This document shows positions 11,836-20,547 of a stretch of 64,000 nucleotides of DNA, piece by piece. Origin of the DNA: Nitrosopumilus sp. (GTDB lineage: Archaea; Thermoproteota; Nitrososphaeria; Nitrososphaerales; Nitrosopumilaceae); the NCBI GenBank assembly GCA_965218695.1, contig OZ244651.1:2304001-2368000 (forward strand), in the 5' to 3' direction. The position numbers were made by a program, and so were the translations under genes. Below the pieces are notes generated by a model. That model did not search any database. It had not been told where the DNA came from and saw nothing but the letters and a program-made list of their open reading frames with translations. Position 1 is the first letter of the stretch; every line of letters starts with the position of its first letter.

Positions 11836-13015
11836 CCGCACAACGTGCGGCTATGTTGACAGACGCATTCTTGTCTGCGTGGTCTTCATGCCCACACTTT
11901 ACGCAGACAAACACCGACTGCGAGCGCCTGGAATTCCTGTCCGTGTTGTGGCATTCGGCGCACGTGATGCTGGTGTTGTGCGGCCTTACCCTGCAGAATT
12001 CCTTGTTGTGTTTTTCTGAAAACCATTCAATGTACGATAATACCTCGCCTATCGCGGCGTGCTTTATGACGCGGTTCAACCCGGTCTTGCCCCGGCCTTT
12101 CCTGGCCATCTGTTTTGGGTGGAGATCCTCGACTGCCATGGTTTTGGCGCCTGTAAGTTCATTCTTGACGCTCTTTTTCATGAAATCAGTCCGGCGGTTC
12201 CTGATCTTTTCGACGGCTTTTGCAATCCGTCTCCGCTCCTTCTTCCACGAATTGCCGCCTTTTTTGCGCCCGGACTGCGCGGACTTTCTCTTGTCTATGT
12301 CGTCTTTCTTGTACCGTCTGGCATTTTCAGGCAGCGTGGCAAGCACGGTGGTGTTTTTGTCCAGGTTGTGGATTGCCATCATGTTGACTGCGCCGACGTC
12401 GATCCCGACGAGGTTGCCATCGCGGCGTTCGGGTTTGGCCACATGCACCTGGACGTGCAGCTCGTACGTGCGGTCACATGGCTTGGTATCTTTGGTGATT
12501 TTTTTGGTGGTTTCTATTATTTGGAAAGATTTGATTTGGTCGCGTTCTATCGGGGTGCTTTTGGGCACGATGTTGCAGATGCCGCCGATATTCCAGGAGC
12601 CGTCTGCGCGGCCTGCCGGATGCCCGTAGCACCCGATTGCCGGCAGTCGACGTTTGGCATTATTGCTCTTCTTCCTGAACAGGCTGTCCGGGGACGTGTA
12701 TTTGCGCTTGTGTTTTGGCATCCGGCGCTTGGCGGCGTTGGATTCCAGGAATAGTTTGACTGCCTTTCGGCCGCAATCCATGGCATGTCTGTGAACATTC
12801 ACGTTGGCATCCAGCCAGCCGTGTTCTGCCCGCTTCTTTGTGAGTGTGCTGTACAGGCCGAACCTTCCCGGATTGTCCTCCAGCACCTGCCTGACGCCCT
12901 CGTTGTAACACCAGTCTGCCTGCGGCCGCGTCTCCCAAATCAGGCGGGAAATCTCCCGTGACTGGTAAAATGGAATCGTGAATGTCTGCGTCGTGTATGG
13001 GAGGTTTTGTTTCAT
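11657..13015 (-). CDS. tnpB: RNA-guided endonuclease TnpB
   Basis: RuvC-I GIDVG, RuvC-II VEDL, Zn ribbon CAEC..CVKC, RuvC-III HADKNAS; catalytic D-E-D intact. Confidence 0.92.
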   Translation of the reverse strand: MKQNLPYTTQTFTIPFYQSREISRLIWETRPQADWCYNEGVRQVLEDNPGRFGLYSTLTKKRAEHGWLDANVNVHRHAMDCGRKAVKLFLESNAAKRRMPKHKRKYTSPDSLFRKKSNNAKRRLPAIGCYGHPAGRADGSWNIGGICNIVPKSTPIERDQIKSFQIIETTKKITKDTKPCDRTYELHVQVHVAKPERRDGNLVGIDVGAVNMMAIHNLDKNTTVLATLPENARRYKKDDIDKRKSAQSGRKKGGNSWKKERRRIAKAVEKIRNRRTDFMKKSVKNELTGAKTMAVEDLHPKQMARKGRGKTGLNRVIKHAAIGEVLSYIEWFSEKHNKEFCRVRPHNTSITCAECHNTDRNSRRSQSVFVCVKCGHEDHADKNASVNIAARCAEAAGKVVVRRKKHAAPRACMREIAVNERANQRVSLPSERNMCRLPPSIGGWPTFVYNSL

Positions 13016-13258
13016 CAGGTATGGTATTGTACGGTACCGTGCGTTAAAAGGGTATCAGATGTCTTAGTTAGTTGCACAACTATGTCCAGATACGAGGCAG
13101 TTCGGCAGCAGTCACGTTCGGAATCATCCGGACTGTCTGCCGGATGCTCCAAGGATCGCCATTACACGTACCGTGCTGCCTGGCATCTCTTGGATCAATT
13201 GTGATCAGCTAAAAGATCAATTGTATTTGTTCTATATGCACAAAGATCAGTACATGCT

Positions 13259-14323
13259 GTGCGTGTGATAATGGGCAAGATGGATGCTGCAAAACCCGCC
13301 AAGCAGAAATCACGGCTACACATCACGCATGCGCAAAACGACGCAAGGTATGTGGACCGTGGAATGACGCTGTACCTCTGCGCTGATCCGGACTGGATCA
13401 ACGAGGTTGCGAGGATGAACCACAAGAAGAACGGCCGTCCGTTCGAATATGCCGAGGGCCTGTTTGAGCTGCTGGCAGGAATAAAAGCAGCATGCGGAAT
13501 TTCCTATCGCGCATGCGAGGGACTGGCAATAAAGGCACTGGAACGCGGCAACGCGCCTGACTACACCACGATATACAGGAGAATCAACGCCCTCAAAGTG
13601 GAGGATGACGGCAGCATGGTCATGGTCCACGGCAGGAAGGGGGCCCTGTGCCTGATTCCAGACGGCACCGGACTGTCGCCTACCAAGCGCAGCGAGTGGA
13701 TACGCAAAACGCACAAGGTAAAGCACGGCTTTATCAGGCTGGGAATAATGATAGACCAGGACACGCGCGAGATTCTGGCATTTAGCATTACAGACGAGCA
13801 CACCGGAGACTCTCCGCAGTTTGAGGGACTGCTTGAGGGTTCCCTGGAGAAGATTGGCATCGGAGGCACGGAATCGGAAGGGCAGGATGCGGCGGCCAGG
13901 AATCCGGACATAACGGTAAAGGCAGACGGCGGATACGACTCCCGCAAGATCTTTTCGTACTGCAAAAAGCGCGGCGTAGAGCCCCTCATACGGATACGCG
14001 GCAACTCCAACACGCGTTCGAACGGCGTGGACAGGTCCCGCACCAACGCCGTGCTGGATCAGCTTGGAGGCGGCATCACCGACCCCAAAAAGTTCGCGGC
14101 CCTGAACACGGGGAAGCGCGAGGAGAACAGGGAACAATGGAAGATTCGCGTAGGCTTTGGCAAGCGGTGGAATGTGGAGATTGTATTCTCGGCATTCAAG
14201 AGGATATTTGGTGATGCTGTTTGGGCTGCAAAGTGGAAGAACATAAAACAGGAAATCCGGATCAAGATTTGGCTGTACAACCGCATGCTGCGCGCATCAC
14301 AGGAGGCAATCGCAAGGACGTGA
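13259..14323 (+). CDS. IS5-family (IS903-like) DDE transposase
   Basis: GRPFEY, PDYTTIYRR, PDGTGL, ADGGYDS, KRWNVEIVFSAFKRIFG. Confidence 0.9.
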   Translation: MRVIMGKMDAAKPAKQKSRLHITHAQNDARYVDRGMTLYLCADPDWINEVARMNHKKNGRPFEYAEGLFELLAGIKAACGISYRACEGLAIKALERGNAPDYTTIYRRINALKVEDDGSMVMVHGRKGALCLIPDGTGLSPTKRSEWIRKTHKVKHGFIRLGIMIDQDTREILAFSITDEHTGDSPQFEGLLEGSLEKIGIGGTESEGQDAAARNPDITVKADGGYDSRKIFSYCKKRGVEPLIRIRGNSNTRSNGVDRSRTNAVLDQLGGGITDPKKFAALNTGKREENREQWKIRVGFGKRWNVEIVFSAFKRIFGDAVWAAKWKNIKQEIRIKIWLYNRMLRASQEAIART

Positions 14324-14793
14324 GGCAAGGATACGTCTTGGGCCATACTGTCTTGATCATGAAGGTGGAACTGTAGGGAGGTTGTGCAACTCCCATGTGT
14401 TACGGGTATCCAAACCCGTTGATGTCATGTGTTGGCAATGCGTCTGATCCAGTCCGATTTGGGTTGGTCGGGCTGTTTTTTAAAGATTTGTGGGCAGGTT
14501 CGACGTAAATCGGATATTTTGATCATTATTGCCCCCGATCCTGCAGAATCCGATGCAAATGTCATGGCTCGTGTGCAGGTACAGGCAGGCGTTGCGCGCG
14601 GATTTGGATGAATGGCACACAGCTACCGCTAGGAATCTCTCCGTATCCGGAGGAAAAGCAGGCCAAACTCCTACAGTCAATATCGTTTTCGGCAAGCCGG
14701 AGGGGGACAAGAGGGGGCGTTGAGCCGCCCCTCATCTGTGCAGGGGCGGCAAAACACACCCGGGGTTGTTTAATCTCCCCATGGCGCCCAGAC

Positions 14794-15861
14794 TCAGGAT
14801 TCGGCGATGCGCTTTATTCTCTGGAATTTTCGTCTGACAAAATCCCTGTCCTGGGTCCTGTACTCGGCGTCGTGTTCAAGCATCTCCCAGACCCATTCGA
14901 GCATCTGCCTGGCCACGGCAACCCTTGCCTTCATGGGCCCTATGCGGGCTGCCAGTCTCTGGTAGCGTGCCCCTATCCGGGCATCGTGCCGGACTGCGAC
15001 GAAGGCGGCCTCGACCATGGCGCGGCGCAGCCAGACAGAACCGCGCTTTGTGATGCCACCGGTCCTGACTGTCTCCCCGCTGTTGCGGTGTTTTGGCGCC
15101 AGGCCTGCATACGAGACCAGCTTTTCGGCGTTGGCGAACCTCTTGTGGTCGACTATTTCGGCAAGTATGGTTACTGCCGTGACGTATCCTATTCCGGGTA
15201 TGGTCATGATCAGTCGTGCCCGCCTGTCGCTCATCGCAATCCCGGCTATCTTTTTTTCAAATTTTGACACCTGCTTTAGTATGGTGTCGATGATGGCTAG
15301 GTGCGACTGCACCGCCATGCAGTCAACCTCCCTCAGGGGCACGTCCTGCAGCCACTCGATGCCCTGCTCCGTAAACAGCCCCCCTTTGGGCTGCTCGTGC
15401 GGGTATTTGGCCAGGATCGCGTGGATGCGGTTCTTGGGGCCTGAGGCGGACATCTTCATGCCCAGGCGGGTGCGGGTCAGTTCGCGCAGATCCCGCGCGG
15501 GCTTGTCGGCCACGAACGATTCGGGGATCATGTCCAGCCTGCACAGGTCTGCCAGCTTTTCCGAGTCGGCCTTGTCGTTTTTGTACACGGTTTCGGTTAT
15601 TATCTTCGTGTTGTGCGGGTGGGCCAGCAGGGTGTCGATGCCCGCATCCTCGAGCATGTCGTGCACGACTATCCAGTAGTTGGCCGTGGATTCGCAGACG
15701 GCCGTGGCCGGCACGTACCCTTCCTTGTGGATCATCTTGATGAATCCGGTTATTCCCCGAACGTTGTTGTCAAATTCAGTCTGCTTTAGTATGTCCTTGG
15801 TACTTCCCTTGATCGTTGTAACGCATTTCTTTTTGTGAACGTCTATTCCAACGTAATACGT
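14794..15861 (-). CDS. IS110 DEDD recombinase
   Basis: YVGIDVHK, CESTANY, KNDKADS, IPGIG, NSG motifs; most of the ORF-track N-terminal extension comes from the IS481; perfect SD precedes ACG at 15861. Confidence 0.9.
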   Translation of the reverse strand, partial: TYYVGIDVHKKKCVTTIKGSTKDILKQTEFDNNVRGITGFIKMIHKEGYVPATAVCESTANYWIVVHDMLEDAGIDTLLAHPHNTKIITETVYKNDKADSEKLADLCRLDMIPESFVADKPARDLRELTRTRLGMKMSASGPKNRIHAILAKYPHEQPKGGLFTEQGIEWLQDVPLREVDCMAVQSHLAIIDTILKQVSKFEKKIAGIAMSDRRARLIMTIPGIGYVTAVTILAEIVDHKRFANAEKLVSYAGLAPKHRNSGETVRTGGITKRGSVWLRRAMVEAAFVAVRHDARIGARYQRLAARIGPMKARVAVARQMLEWVWEMLEHDAEYRTQDRDFVRRKFQRIKRIAES

Positions 15862-15882
15862 GTTATCACCTCCTTTGCAGTG

Positions 15883-17314
15883 TGTATAGTCCCGAAAGTT
15901 GTTCACCCCCCACATGAGGCTCCGGCCCGGGGTGGACATGCCCAATGAAGGACATTATCCGCGGCATGGCATCGCGTGCAAGATTACTGGGAAATGCAGT
16001 CAGCCTGTCCCTTACCAGAAACGACGGTGTGTGGGTTTCCCGTCGGTGGAGACGCTCGGCCGTGTGGCGTCATATAGGAAGACGGAGAGTGCGAGTGATG
16101 AAAAAGCTTGACCAGTCCAAAGTCGAATGGATCATACAAGAAAAGCGCAAGAATTCCCGCAACAAAGAGATTGCAGCAAGCATGGGAGTGTCGGTCCGCT
16201 GGGTCCAAAAGCTGTGGAAGAGGTACAGGGACAAGGATCGGATCGCGTATCCTGCTCCCATGGGCAGGCCCAAAAAGTGCGCGCCCGGGAGGCGGGATCA
16301 TTCGGCGGTTTTATCGGCTGCGTCCACTGCAGTCCACGGGGCAGCGTCCCTGGAGCGCATCATAAAGTCGCTTACAGGAATACATATCCCACACAACGTC
16401 CTGCACAGGATATTGAAGGATGCCGATTTTGCAGACACCCAGCCAAGGAAGAGCCAGCGCCGCAAGTGGATCCGCTACGAGCGCGAGCACTCCAACTCGA
16501 TGTGGCACACAGACTACAAACAGCTTGACGACGGCAGGTGGTTCCTGTGCTATGAAGACGACGCCTCGCGCTTCGTGACCGGATTTGGGGTATTTGAGGA
16601 GGCGACAACCGAAAACGCCCTGAAGGTGCTCGACGAGGCCATAAAAAATTACGGCAAGCCCGCATCGATCCTGACTGACCGCGGCGCCCAGTTCTATGCC
16701 ACGGAATCCGAGGTCAAGAAGAAGGGAGCCTCCAGGTTCGAGCAGAGGCTAGTCGAGCTTGGAATCAGGCACATACTGGCGCGCGTGCGGCACCCCCAAA
16801 CCAACGGCAAGCTGGAGCGCCTGCACGGGGAGATGCAGCGCAAGCTGCGCCGGTTCGAGGCGGCATCTTCTGCCAAGACCAGGCGCGGCGCCTCAGGGGA
16901 TTCCCACGTTGGAGGGCCGTTTTGCACCGCGCCAGCAAAGGATCCCGTGGAGCGGTTCATGGAGTGGTACAACCACGACCGGCCGCACATGTCCCTTGAC
17001 TGGGACAACCTCGAGACCCCGGCGCAGGCATTCGAAAGAAAGATGCCCCCTGCAGGAGAGATGGTAGTGGACGGCCAGACCGGTGAGGAATACCGCGCAG
17101 AATAGCTGTCCGGCACGACGTCACAACCGCGCCCCATCCTGGGGGATGTTGCGCACAATTTTTTGAAAGTCGCCATGCGTGGAGTGGAAATGACAAAAAT
17201 TCATGATTCCGGACGCAGGATCCAACACAAGACAATTATGCAACAGCCGGCAACATCAAACATGGAAGTACCTCCAAGTCTTGGAGGGGGGCGAACTACT
17301 TTCGGGATCCCACA
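15883..17314 (+). mobile_element. IS481-family element copy 1 (1432 bp)
   Basis: Ends TGTATAGTCCCGAAAGT / ACTTTCGGGATCCCACA; 15-bp TSD ACCTCCTTTGCAGTG. Confidence 0.93.
16098..17105 (+). CDS. IS481-family transposase (rve integrase core)
   Basis: HTH plus WHTDYK, DDASR, LTDRGAQF, PQTNGKLER, YNHDRPH; likely start MKKLDQ. Confidence 0.9.
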   Translation: MKKLDQSKVEWIIQEKRKNSRNKEIAASMGVSVRWVQKLWKRYRDKDRIAYPAPMGRPKKCAPGRRDHSAVLSAASTAVHGAASLERIIKSLTGIHIPHNVLHRILKDADFADTQPRKSQRRKWIRYEREHSNSMWHTDYKQLDDGRWFLCYEDDASRFVTGFGVFEEATTENALKVLDEAIKNYGKPASILTDRGAQFYATESEVKKKGASRFEQRLVELGIRHILARVRHPQTNGKLERLHGEMQRKLRRFEAASSAKTRRGASGDSHVGGPFCTAPAKDPVERFMEWYNHDRPHMSLDWDNLETPAQAFERKMPPAGEMVVDGQTGEEYRAE

Positions 17315-17325
17315 ACCTCCTTTGC

Positions 17326-17499
17326 AGTGTATCGGACCCGACCAGCGGAAAACTCCCATTCACCGTCAAAGCGGTATTTGACCATCCGCATACCTTGAGT
17401 CACTCTAACTAACGCCCTCATACGTGGCAAGTTGCACTCGACTCTCAGGTCCAACAGGGTAAATGCCATGATCGCCGCTATAACGGCAACACATGGCGT
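17326..17499 (-). ncRNA. Candidate IS110 bridge RNA
   Basis: 5' hairpin, 12-bp closing stem with G-U pairs, loop carrying GTGCAACT and TTAGTTAG (match target), second loop with ATGGGAG (matches donor). Confidence 0.75.
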
Positions 17500-17536
17500 C
17501 TAACTAAGATGTCTACTTTTGTATATAATTCCCAGA

Positions 17537-17830
17537 TTATACGCCAAGGATCTTCTTGAGCATGGCCCGATAGTCCACGTCGCTCTTTCCGCTTCCCGCA
17601 GCGGGCAGCGCAAAGACCAGGGCGGATTTTTCCGTACGGAGCTCGGTCAGCTCGTCGCTGATCTTTTCTGTAATGTCGTCGCTGACCAGTACCAGCGCGA
17701 CGTCCGGGTCGTCAGTAAGCCTCCTGATCTCCCCGAGGGCAGTATCGGGGGTTTTGGTGATTACCCCGGGCACTCCTGCCAGCTGAAAACTGGTTACAAA
17801 CGACTTGCTGCCCACTGTCAGAACCCTCAC
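17537..17830 (-). CDS. atpF: A/V-type ATP synthase subunit F
   Basis: VGSKSFVTSFQLAGV...DYRAMLKKILGV; GTG start at 17830 inferred; stop codon lies within the TSD. Confidence 0.85.
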   Translation of the reverse strand: MRVLTVGSKSFVTSFQLAGVPGVITKTPDTALGEIRRLTDDPDVALVLVSDDITEKISDELTELRTEKSALVFALPAAGSGKSDVDYRAMLKKILGV

Positions 17831-18358
17831 GACTCCCACTCCTGTGCGTTCTAATTTAACCCTTTTTGGACTCGCGCCGACCCCGAAGGCTGCCATGCGC
17901 CTTCTCGTCCAGCCACGCGCCGGATGGAATCGCACCTTCTTGCGCGCACAGACTTTGGGTTCCAAGCGCGGCGGCTGCCGCCGGATCCGGCCTGCGGCTT
18001 AGTGCCAAGATGCAGGCAGCACGCAAAGATTGGTTAGGCCCCGTAGGACTGCATGCATCCGACGGTGCCGGCGGCGATCCGTCCAAAACCGCAAGGATCT
18101 GCCCCGCTGCCAGAAAAACCACGAGGGCCTGAATGCCGAACGAATCCCAAGGAGGAAGGGAATGCGGCGGGCATTCCTGCCGCGTATGATGAATCAGGGC
18201 AGTTGCCTCACCCGCAACAAAGGGATCGAATCCCACTTGCGAATTTCACGAGTTTCCCCGTTTTCGCTTTTGAAGCCTGACGGCCGTGCGGCAACCGAGG
18301 TCTGCCCGTAGATATAGGGACGGGGTGACTAATAGGTTTTTCATTCGGGAGGATGCGA

Positions 18359-19790
18359 TGTATAGTCCCGAAAGTTGTTCACCCCCCACATGAGGCTCCG
18401 GCCCGGGGTGGACATGCCCAATGAAGGACATTATCCGCGGCATGGCATCGCGTGCAAGATTACTGGGAAATGCAGTCAGCCTGTCCCTTACCAGAAACGA
18501 CGGTGTGTGGGTTTCCCGTCGGTGGAGACGCTCGGCCGTGTGGCGTCATATAGGAAGACGGAGAGTGCGAGTGATGAAAAAGCTTGACCAGTCCAAAGTC
18601 GAATGGATCATACAAGAAAAGCGCAAGAATTCCCGCAACAAAGAGATTGCAGCAAGCATGGGAGTGTCGGTCCGCTGGGTCCAAAAGCTGTGGAAGAGGT
18701 ACAGGGACAAGGATCGGATCGCGTATCCTGCTCCCATGGGCAGGCCCAAAAAGTGCGCGCCCGGGAGGCGGGATCATTCGGCGGTTTTATCGGCTGCGTC
18801 CACTGCAGTCCACGGGGCAGCGTCCCTGGAGCGCATCATAAAGTCGCTTACAGGAATACATATCCCACACAACGTCCTGCACAGGATATTGAAGGATGCC
18901 GATTTTGCAGACACCCAGCCAAGGAAGAGCCAGCGCCGCAAGTGGATCCGCTACGAGCGCGAGCACTCCAACTCGATGTGGCACACAGACTACAAACAGC
19001 TTGACGACGGCAGGTGGTTCCTGTGCTATGAAGACGACGCCTCGCGCTTCGTGACCGGATTTGGGGTATTTGAGGAGGCGACAACCGAAAACGCCCTGAA
19101 GGTGCTCGACGAGGCCATAAAAAATTACGGCAAGCCCGCATCGATCCTGACTGACCGCGGCGCCCAGTTCTATGCCACGGAATCCGAGGTCAAGAAGAAG
19201 GGAGCCTCCAGGTTCGAGCAGAGGCTAGTCGAGCTTGGAATCAGGCACATACTGGCGCGCGTGCGGCACCCCCAAACCAACGGCAAGCTGGAGCGCCTGC
19301 ACGGGGAGATGCAGCGCAAGCTGCGCCGGTTCGAGGCGGCATCTTCTGCCAAGACCAGGCGCGGCGCCTCAGGGGATTCCCACGTTGGAGGGCCGTTTTG
19401 CACCGCGCCAGCAAAGGATCCCGTGGAGCGGTTCATGGAGTGGTACAACCACGACCGGCCGCACATGTCCCTTGACTGGGACAACCTCGAGACCCCGGCG
19501 CAGGCATTCGAAAGAAAGATGCCCCCTGCAGGAGAGATGGTAGTGGACGGCCAGACCGGTGAGGAATACCGCGCAGAATAGCTGTCCGGCACGACGTCAC
19601 AACCGCGCCCCATCCTGGGGGATGTTGCGCACAATTTTTTGAAAGTCGTCATGCGTGGAGTGGAAATGACAAAAATTCATGATTCCGGACGCAGGATCCA
19701 ACACAAGACAATTATGCAACAGCCGGCAACATCAAACATGGAAGTACCTCCAAGTCTTGGAGGGGGGCGAACTACTTTCGGGATCCCACA
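18359..19790 (+). mobile_element. IS481-family element copy 2
   Basis: Same 1432 bp; TSD TTCGGGAGGATGCGA (18344-18358 / 19791-19805). Confidence 0.93.
18574..19581 (+). CDS. IS481-family transposase
   Basis: Protein identical to copy 1. Confidence 0.9.
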   Translation: MKKLDQSKVEWIIQEKRKNSRNKEIAASMGVSVRWVQKLWKRYRDKDRIAYPAPMGRPKKCAPGRRDHSAVLSAASTAVHGAASLERIIKSLTGIHIPHNVLHRILKDADFADTQPRKSQRRKWIRYEREHSNSMWHTDYKQLDDGRWFLCYEDDASRFVTGFGVFEEATTENALKVLDEAIKNYGKPASILTDRGAQFYATESEVKKKGASRFEQRLVELGIRHILARVRHPQTNGKLERLHGEMQRKLRRFEAASSAKTRRGASGDSHVGGPFCTAPAKDPVERFMEWYNHDRPHMSLDWDNLETPAQAFERKMPPAGEMVVDGQTGEEYRAE

Positions 19791-19816
19791 TTCGGGAGGA
19801 TGCGAGTCTGGATCCA

Positions 19817-19888
19817 GCACCGCGTGGACACGGCACCGCGTGGACACGGCACCGCGTGGACACGGCACCGCGTGGACACGACACCGCG
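19817..19888. repeat. Tandem repeat, 4 x GCACCGCGTGGACACG plus a partial unit
   Basis: Directly visible, no spacers. Confidence 0.92.
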
Positions 19889-19977
19889 CAGGCTGCAAAA
19901 TCAGCCCCATGCCAGAATCAGGCCCGGACACATCCGCCATAGGAAAGGTTGATTTAACCAGAGGGATCAGCAACATC

Positions 19978-20283
19978 ATGACTGACATTGATGCCCAGAA
20001 GGACGTCTACCTCTTCCTGCACGGAAGGATGGACCTCAGGGAAAAGGCAGCAGCTGCCCTTGCCACAAAAGGCTTTGCCGCAGACAAGATAGTCATGGCA
20101 ATGCCAGACAAGGTCGGGAAGGTGGGCGACTACATGGCAATGCTGTGGATGCCGCCAAATCCGGATCATATCAAGATCCAGCAGATTACGGGAGTCATCG
20201 ACGTGGAGCCAGAAGGCATGATCGGCCTCTGGAAGGGCGTCTCAAAGGATGACATAGACCAGGTTCCCCTTGGGGCTAGCTAG
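19978..20283 (+). CDS. Hypothetical protein
   Basis: MTDIDAQKDVYLFLHGRMDLREK...; coding-like; upstream part of the track ORF is IS/repeat sequence. Confidence 0.7.
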   Translation: MTDIDAQKDVYLFLHGRMDLREKAAAALATKGFAADKIVMAMPDKVGKVGDYMAMLWMPPNPDHIKIQQITGVIDVEPEGMIGLWKGVSKDDIDQVPLGAS

Positions 20284-20295
20284 CTAGCTAGCTGG

Positions 20296-20547
20296 CTAAC
20301 TGAATCCCGCACCAAACTCGTTTCCTTTTTCCAGCACGTTACCTGATTCGGTGCTCCTGAGCTTTCTGTACAGCAGCGTCTCATAGACCAGCTTCATTGC
20401 AGCCTCGTCATCAAGATTGCAGTCGCTCTTCACCTGGTTCCGGTACTTTGCAAGCACCGCAACGTCATGCTCGTCGGCAGAGACGTGGTCATGAACCATT
20501 AGGTTGGCAATCTTTTCTATCTCGGCATTCAACAGATCATCATCCAT
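20296..20547 (-). CDS. Small hypothetical protein
   Basis: 83-aa ORF with protein-like composition, convergent with previous gene. Confidence 0.65.
   Translation of the reverse strand: MDDDLLNAEIEKIANLMVHDHVSADEHDVAVLAKYRNQVKSDCNLDDEAAMKLVYETLLYRKLRSTESGNVLEKGNEFGAGFS

Follow-up and report, generated by a model that had tools for sequence, protein, structure and literature searches.

How an insertion sequence comes to lie exactly within the terminal repeat of another insertion sequence, and which part of it could choose such a site, is the question raised by a locus of Nitrosopumilus sp. (assembly GCA_965218695.1, contig OZ244651.1), from which a 64,000-nucleotide stretch, referred to as the window, was analysed. 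Three mobile elements are nested at this locus, with an IS5-like element on the outside, an IS110-family element in the middle and an rve-type IS on the inside. The outer element has the features of the IS5 family, namely a DDE_Tnp_1 transposase flanked by terminal inverted repeats; its left part (13064-14391, plus strand) includes the left half of the target and one copy of a CT core, and its transposase ORF (13259-14323, plus strand) matches the Pfam families DDE_Tnp_1 (E = 8e-19) and DDE_Tnp_1_5. The right terminal repeat reads TTGTGCAA-CT at 14382-14391 and continues as CT-AACTAAG at 17500-17508, where the second copy of the core and the right target half AACTAA form the outer tip of the repeat (17500-17507, plus strand). 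After removal of the insert, the 17-bp terminal repeat of the IS5-like element is perfect, and its target duplication is of ambiguous length, with 4-7 bp readable.

The IS110-family element thus splits the IS5 right repeat, where the sequence-only reading had placed its target, and the junction coordinates and strings of that reading all agree with the sequence. The body of the element, excluding the two flanking CT copies, occupies 14392-17499 on the minus strand and amounts to 1661 bp after subtraction of the nested rve-type IS and one copy of its duplication. At the left junction GTTGTGCAA (14381-14389) is followed by CT (14390-14391) and CCCATG (14392-14397), and at the right junction CATGGCGT (17492-17499) is followed by CT (17500-17501) and AACTAA (17502-17507). 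Read on the minus strand, the left IS5 repeat (13064-13077) gives the uninterrupted target, GTGCAACTAACTAA. The element therefore has CT at both ends, a short core on either side without classical terminal repeats. The sub-terminal inverted repeats that had been noticed by eye are present, with 14393-14409 complementary to 17480-17496 over 17 nt (82%, of which 9 bp are perfect), and are kept in relatives; beyond them the element extends by ACG on the left (3 bp, or 5 with the core) and by G plus the core AG on the right (3 bp). The downstream non-coding end (14392-14793, minus strand, 402 nt), which holds the repeat at 14393-14409, was considered as the site of a second guide RNA, and this candidate was dropped since no target match of 7 nt or more occurs within it. 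A G+C-rich inverted repeat with 20-nt arms (14713-14761, 80% complementary) lies in this end, directly 3' of the recombinase stop codon.

The innermost element, the rve-type IS, spans 1431 bp (15884-17314, plus strand) and encodes an rve integrase (15945-17105). Imperfect repeats of 22 nt form its ends, and on either side of it lies one copy of a 16-bp direct repeat (15868-15883 and 17315-17330). Nine genomic copies of it were found, two in the window (15884-17314 and 18359-19789) and seven more on G000:C1. Direct repeats of 15-17 bp flank all nine, four as exact 16-mers and the others with a one-base shift of the boundary, and such duplications are unusually long; we presume that IS481 and IS1202-like elements are possible relatives. 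Directly after the second copy in the window, 19809-19888 holds four to five tandem copies of the 16-nt unit TGGACACGGCACCGCG. The mobile-element load of this genome is heavy, with 15 matches to IS110 recombinase domains in addition to the nine copies of the rve-type IS.

The IS110-family element encodes a DEDD recombinase (14794-15883, minus strand), severed from the upstream end by the nested IS, that contains the domains DEDD_Tnp_IS110 (Pfam PF01548) and Transposase_20 (Pfam PF02371) with E-values of 2e-18 and 2e-28, above the curated cut-offs. In the intact copy described below, D24, E74, D113, D116 and S278 each fall opposite the same amino acid of IS621, at positions which we take to be catalytic there. 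The recombinases of the window copy and of this intact second copy differ at one residue (G151 against D151). The window copy is probably incapable of its own expression, since the nested IS stands between the rest of its recombinase gene and the portion that holds the first ATG and the RNA gene; the intact copy could act in trans. The nearest recombinase relatives, in a scan of one genome per species that returned four of them, belong to Nitrosopumilus (86-88% amino-acid identity) and Cenarchaeum (68%) MAGs, in keeping with the earlier description of the element as an archaeal IS110, and the best plasmid relatives, from Rhodococcus, rhizobia and haloarchaea, are 33-37% identical. Among characterized elements the protein scores 70 bits against IS621 (in two stretches), 69.6 against ISCro4 and 64.7 against IS4321 (22% identity over residues 59-351), pairwise scores so similar that they do not place it in either group; the element is filed here at the level of the IS110 superfamily.

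Upstream of the recombinase gene, on the same strand, lies a candidate bridge RNA gene (17331-17499, minus strand), modelled over 169 nt as a 5' hairpin, a long stem, a target loop and a donor loop. The minimum-energy fold of this region reproduces the architecture drawn earlier by eye, with the 5' hairpin, the long stem and two loops closed by GAGTC/GACTC and GCGGA/TCCGC, respectively, and its energy of -64.4 kcal/mol compares with -52.8 ± 4.2 for shuffled sequences (z = -2.8; one of 200 shuffles was as stable). The 3' strand of the long stem (17331-17341, minus strand) pairs with 17445-17455, so that both loops are enclosed by a single stem of 11-12 bp, also as first perceived. The 5' hairpin (17465-17497, minus strand) contains the sub-terminal repeat at 17480-17496. 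When the proposed structure of 45 pairs was laid on seven relatives, 95% of positions were paired, as compared with at most 52% when the partners were slid, and seven pairs were changed on both sides (2.0 ± 1.2 in shuffles, none of 500 reaching seven, and at most three with slid partners); three of these fall in the 5' hairpin and two in the long stem. The stems are conserved in the alignment of RNA regions and the loop strands are variable. An Rfam scan of 12500-20500 at E-values up to 1 returned only a chance miRNA match, in a database that may hold no bridge-RNA model.

The extent of the RNA at its 5' end may be read in another way. The transcript could be real but shorter, starting at about model position 45, where the long stem has its base, with the 5' hairpin serving as a DNA feature that combines repeat and promoter. 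The hairpin loop holds a TATA-like TTATAG (model positions 17-22; 17478-17483, minus strand) about 25 nt before the long stem, which could be an internal archaeal promoter with the RNA beginning at the stem; a TATA-like loop occurs in three of four close variants, L007 having TTGTAA, and seekRNAs of 70-100 nt are reported to be processed from longer forms (PMC11187229). Against this, pairing in the hairpin stem has been kept through three pairs changed on both sides, an observation that a DNA hairpin or repeat would also fit. We consider the shorter transcript doubtful, although it deserves consideration, and prefer the model that includes the hairpin.

Within the target loop, two 8-mers spell the halves of the target. 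The 5' target guide GUGCAACU (GTGCAACT as DNA; 17437-17430, minus strand) is complementary at 8/8 positions to the sense-strand core and right target (AG-TTGCAC), and the 3' target guide UUAGUUAG (TTAGTTAG as DNA; 17412-17405, minus strand) is identical at 8/8 positions to the sense-strand left target and core (TTAGTT-AG) and pairs with the other strand; both matches were already apparent to the sequence-only reading, at these same positions. One 8-mer is therefore in the sense of the target and the other reverse-complementary, and both abut the core. Within 1.66 kb, one 8-mer that matches the 22-nt target readily arises by chance (at least one in 111 of 300 shuffles), whereas both specific 8-mers, in order and within 10-60 nt of each other, are expected 2e-5 times per element.

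That single matches of 7-8 nt are common by chance leaves room for the view that the loop sequences are features of the DNA, either footprints of past recombination or protein-binding sites, and that the protein picks the target. A copied target would, however, be one contiguous string, and here the two halves lie apart, one of them in inverted orientation, and each overlaps the core. Moreover, these segments occupy fixed positions within a scaffold that keeps its pairs by compensatory changes. The relatives of the element bear further on this view, from both sides. In L007 and L008, the 5' guide CACGAACU accompanies AG-TTCGTG and the 3' guide GCGAAAG accompanies GCGAA-AG, and in L009 the 3' guide reads GCAAAAG and the flank GCAAA-AG, so that guide and flank alike differ from those of L007 by one base. 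A third copy of the element in the same genome (L003, G000:C1:1720108-1721762), 86% identical to the window copy, carries the 3' guide GCAUAAG and a left flank of GCATA-AG, a match at 7/7 positions; its 5' guide CACGAACU pairs only at the core with the right flank AG-GATCTT. Sites such as this one, and those of several relatives that are likewise unmatched by their 5' guide, are what a protein that chooses its own target would lead one to expect. The right flank of the third copy is a repeated sequence whose second copy (G000:C1:538472-538549, 96% identical) was considered as an empty site that might account for the mismatch, and it is not an empty site; TTCGT, which is compatible with the 5' guide, occurs 7 nt farther out in the right flank. 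Matches at L006 are also imperfect, with 7 nt and a shift of register on one side and 5/8 on the other.

To extend the comparison across the archaeal family, we built a covariance model of 169 positions from seven relatives, which matched 19 of the 151 sampled genomes and eight of 27 genera (one of the 19, G077, is unpublished and enters only this tally). Sixty fetched regions together with the earlier loci gave 69 matches aligned to the model, in which the first base of each element was set at a fixed 55 nt before the stem of loop 1, blind to the guides. Across the six positions before the core, the 3' target guide agrees with the left flank at 157 of 258 positions, compared with 74.2 ± 7.0 when guides and flanks are permuted (highest of 5000 permutations, 99), figures that, like those of the two tests below, overstate significance because the relatives are not independent, and that give the direction of the effect rather than exact probabilities. 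This test retained 66 rows, three being dropped for odd guide lengths, and covers 43 distinct guides; of these, 63-86% agree with the flank at the positions from -7 to -1, the last two of which are the AG core, and 16% agree at -8. The working 3' target guide is thus five bases plus the core. All five bases adjoining the core match in 21 of the 43 distinct guides and fall short of a full match in 22; the fixed-offset boundary accounts for part of this shortfall, and decayed or mobilised copies may account for another part.

Similarly, the 5' target guide agrees with the six positions of the right flank after the core at 64 of 132 positions (38.8 ± 4.8 permuted; highest of 5000, 58), with positions +1 to +5 matching in 45-64% and +6 in 18% of 22 distinct guides; the 35 rows used are those in which the far end could be placed by the donor-guide key, so that these ends are independent of the target loop but not of the donor loop. 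The covariation between guide and target among homologs that had been named as a check is therefore found, for both target guides and for one donor guide (below). That the flanks vary in step with the 3' guide across 43 different guides and as many sets of flanks, and that the donor loop follows the same logic, makes it very improbable that the loop sequences are mere DNA features. We accordingly treat them as guides.

In addition to the three copies of the element, the same genome contains two orphan copies of the RNA region. These, L095 (G000:C1:747529-747697) and L096 (754879-755030), are 77-80% identical, lie 7 kb apart and carry guides of their own, with no recombinase gene or recognisable far end nearby; they could be relics or stand-alone guide genes. 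At L040 (G065:C1:1677695-1680515), two elements of the family with identical guides are arranged head to tail, 57 nt apart, and the genome concerned has 17 matches to the covariance model.

The donor loop contains a guide for each end of the element. Its 3' strand holds AUGGGAG (17359-17353, minus strand), the same string as the five terminal bases of the far end followed by the core (ATGGG-AG; CT-CCCAT at 14390-14396, plus strand), which bears out both the string and the position first noted for a guide complementary to the donor. As a lone 7-mer, ATGGGAG is insignificant, the interior of the element containing eight donor-junction matches of 7-8 nt, and it gains weight only through its position and the comparison across the family. 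This guide is almost invariant, as are the element ends, and when far ends were sought through the sub-terminal repeat alone, 16 of 25 candidates read ATGG-GAG and the other nine look spurious; the relationship between the 3' donor guide and the far end is therefore one of conservation and not of covariation. The AUG of this conserved guide is also the first in-frame ATG of the recombinase (window 17353-17359; L002:1529), 19 codons upstream of the conserved YVGIDVHK motif, and the intact copy encodes 372 amino acids when counted from it, so that guide and coding sequence may overlap at the putative start codon.

The sequence-only reading had seen no convincing guide for the opposite end, and one emerges from the family. 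AUGGUC (17385-17380, minus strand; model positions 115-120) is complementary to bases 7 to 2 of the element (CGCCAT, window 17493-17498) and not to the core. In the window copy the pairing is imperfect, with four Watson-Crick pairs, one G.U and one mismatch, and was for this reason missed by eye. Among relatives, AUGGCA occurs with element bases 2-7 reading TGCCAT, AUAGCA with TGCTAT, AUAGUA with TACTAT, AUAGUG with CACTAT and AUAUCC with GGATAT. Watson-Crick pairs between this guide and bases 7 to 2 number 99 of 150, compared with 70.3 ± 4.2 in permuted sets, and none of 5000 permutations reaches the observed score (highest, 86); 67 rows with 25 distinct guides were kept and two were dropped for odd or absent donor-guide strings. 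Because bases 2-7 are also part of the 5' hairpin, this covariation could equally reflect an RNA-RNA contact with the RNA's own 5' end.

Is this, then, an ordinary bridge-RNA element of the IS621 type, as the topology had at first been named? The position of the RNA upstream of the recombinase is that of IS621, and the protein scores about as well against IS621 (70 bits) as against IS4321 of the IS1111 group (64.7 bits); a mirrored guide order might then arise from the wrong assignment of the RNA strand or of the orientation of the element. The strand can be read from the RNA itself. At nine positions G.U is the commonest pair; the opposite strand would have C.A in these places, which identifies the recombinase (minus) strand as that of the RNA. 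In both loops the sense strand is the complement of the 5' strand and agrees with the 3' strand, the reverse of IS621, whose loops are described with the opposite order of 5' and 3' strand guides (Durrant et al., PMC11208160), and reading the other strand does not give the IS621 order either. The 9-bp perfect sub-terminal repeat is also at odds with the 2-3 bp given for the IS110 group, in which the RNA lies upstream, and in the same account IS1111 elements have sub-terminal repeats of 7-17 bp and an RNA downstream (Durrant et al., 2024, PMC11208160). An IS621-type element with a misassigned strand is thus very improbable, and the topology is not that of the IS621 bridge RNA. The remark that the element is oriented opposite to IS621 relative to its target corresponds to the mirrored guide order, which is the one reported for IS1111 seekRNAs, where the top-strand match precedes the bottom-strand match and the reverse applies to the tested IS110 member (Siddiquee et al., 2024, PMC11187229). 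A few IS1111-like elements named in that account, ISMtsp17, ISHvo10 and ISAcp5, have non-coding regions that are upstream or double (PMC11187229). Terminal extensions in the IS1111 group are 7 bp on the left and 3 bp on the right.

If the target loop specifies the IS5 repeat, the element might be expected to recur there, and it does. A second, intact copy of 1661 bp (G000:C1:443550-445210), of the size foreseen for the reconstructed element and 99.8% identical to the window copy, lies at the same position of the right repeat of another IS5 fragment, itself 94% identical. Since the two IS110-family copies differ by 0.2% whereas their IS5 flanks differ by 6%, and the flanks beyond the IS5 repeat are unrelated, comparison of these sequences argues for two independent insertions. 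This recurrence at one position of diverged IS5 fragments is as had been anticipated, and supports the description of the element as an RNA-guided parasite of another IS. The left IS5 repeat, as had also been remarked, retains a second, unoccupied target, GTGCAA-CT-AACTAA (13064-13077, minus strand; 14/14 target bases), which apart from the occupied sites is the only intact copy of the 14-mer in the 2.63-Mb genome (0.02 expected). An IS5 deletion derivative near C1:1714200 offers a further unoccupied site, with 12/14 target bases, at its right end. Occupation of the outer 14 bp should disable that end of the IS5-like element. Among the contigs of four public runs, no joint indicative of excision or of an empty site was found, and the 20-nt junction between the IS5 repeat and the element end had no exact match in metagenome contigs; contigs that join 15881 to 17334 with five other letters between, from three of these runs, represent uninterrupted relatives of the element, and loose contig ends at 14390 represent other insertion sites.

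Observed here are the anatomy of the element, its guide matches, the structure and covariation of the RNA region, and the recurrence at the same target. With a probability of roughly 0.88, we interpret this element as a member of the IS110/IS1111 superfamily in Nitrosopumilaceae, an insertion sequence whose DEDD recombinase is guided by RNA and whose upstream end encodes a bispecific two-loop guide RNA of about 170 nt. Transcription of this RNA, a circular intermediate and the chemistry of recombination are inferred, and the mechanism would run as follows. The guide RNA would be read from the same strand as the recombinase. The 5' strand of its target loop would pair with the sense strand of the core and right target, and the 3' strand with the opposite strand of the left target and core, so that the two would jointly specify GTGCAA-CT-AACTAA, the outer 14 bp of the IS5-like terminal repeat. 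In the donor loop, the 3' strand would recognise the far end and core (ATGGG-AG) and the 5' strand would pair with bases 2-7 of the near end. If the model of IS621 and ISEc11 applies, a complex of recombinase and RNA would then bring together the target and the joined ends of the circular element, and strand exchange at the 2-bp core would leave one copy of the core on each side, the arrangement seen at this locus. The predicted circle junction consists of the far end ...ACACATGGG, the core AG and the near end ACGCCATGTG....

What is seen here is a variant layout of a known mechanism. IS110-family elements have been recognised since 2024 as carrying out recombination guided by RNA, and landing in the terminal repeat of another transposon is likewise known. 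We found no description of IS110-family guide RNAs in Nitrosopumilaceae in the literature searched, and the layout may already be present in Supplementary Table 5 and Extended Data Fig. 10c of Durrant et al. or in Supplementary Fig. 2 of Siddiquee et al. A tentative proposition, to which we give slightly less than even odds as a whole, is that these elements constitute a third, undescribed architectural class, with an RNA at the 5' end, IS1111-like mirrored guides and sub-terminal repeats, one closing stem and a sub-terminal donor guide, and that this class is widespread in ammonia-oxidising archaea and has been naturally reprogrammed at least 43 times. Were this so, guide polarity and RNA position would have been shuffled independently in evolution, and a compact archaeal bridge system with design rules of its own would exist. 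The layout mixes features that are used to separate IS110 from IS1111 elements, and so bears on how the RNA moved between element ends and on how guide polarity relates to element orientation. The 69 aligned RNAs and their 43 distinct target guides form a natural data set that documents reprogramming in archaea. Design rules for a compact archaeal system can be drawn from the results: on one side 5 nt are read together with the core, on the other side the core is read with 4-6 nt, and the donor guide is sub-terminal. In a host family reported to reach an IS content of up to about 15% (PMC13343696), the locus may also illustrate how a mobile element is disabled when another settles in the tip of its repeat.

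Compared with known systems, the element shares with IS621 (structures 8WT6 and others) a DEDD recombinase in which both Pfam domains recur and the catalytic residues align, a guide RNA encoded in the upstream non-coding end, the order of target loop before donor loop, loops that each read both DNA strands around a 2-bp core, and the presence of this core on both sides of the insert. It differs from IS621 in that the guide order is mirrored in both loops, so that the right halves are read on the sense strand by the 5' strands and the left halves on the opposite strand by the 3' strands, where IS621 does the reverse; its loops are branches under one stem of 11-12 bp, and each has an inner hairpin; its sub-terminal repeat is long (9 bp perfect, 17 nt at 82%); its 5' donor guide skips the core; and its recombinase is distant (70 bits in two stretches). 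With IS1111 elements it has in common sub-terminal inverted repeats, a guide complementary to the top strand 5' of the one complementary to the bottom strand, as in the seekRNAs of ISEc11, ISPa11 and ISKpn4, and natural reprogramming among close relatives, but its RNA is upstream rather than downstream of the gene, its left terminal extension is 3 bp instead of 7, and its protein is just 22% identical to that of IS4321. The closest parallel in target choice is with IS4321 and IS5075, IS110-superfamily elements that Partridge and Hall are said to have described in 2003 as targeting the terminal inverted repeat of another transposon; the target is thus of the same kind, although those elements are bacterial, use Tn21-family repeats and are canonical IS1111 members, whereas the present one is archaeal and uses an IS5-like repeat. 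The element is a member of the IS110 superfamily that works like a bridge RNA or seekRNA element, and is neither of the IS621 type nor a canonical IS1111.
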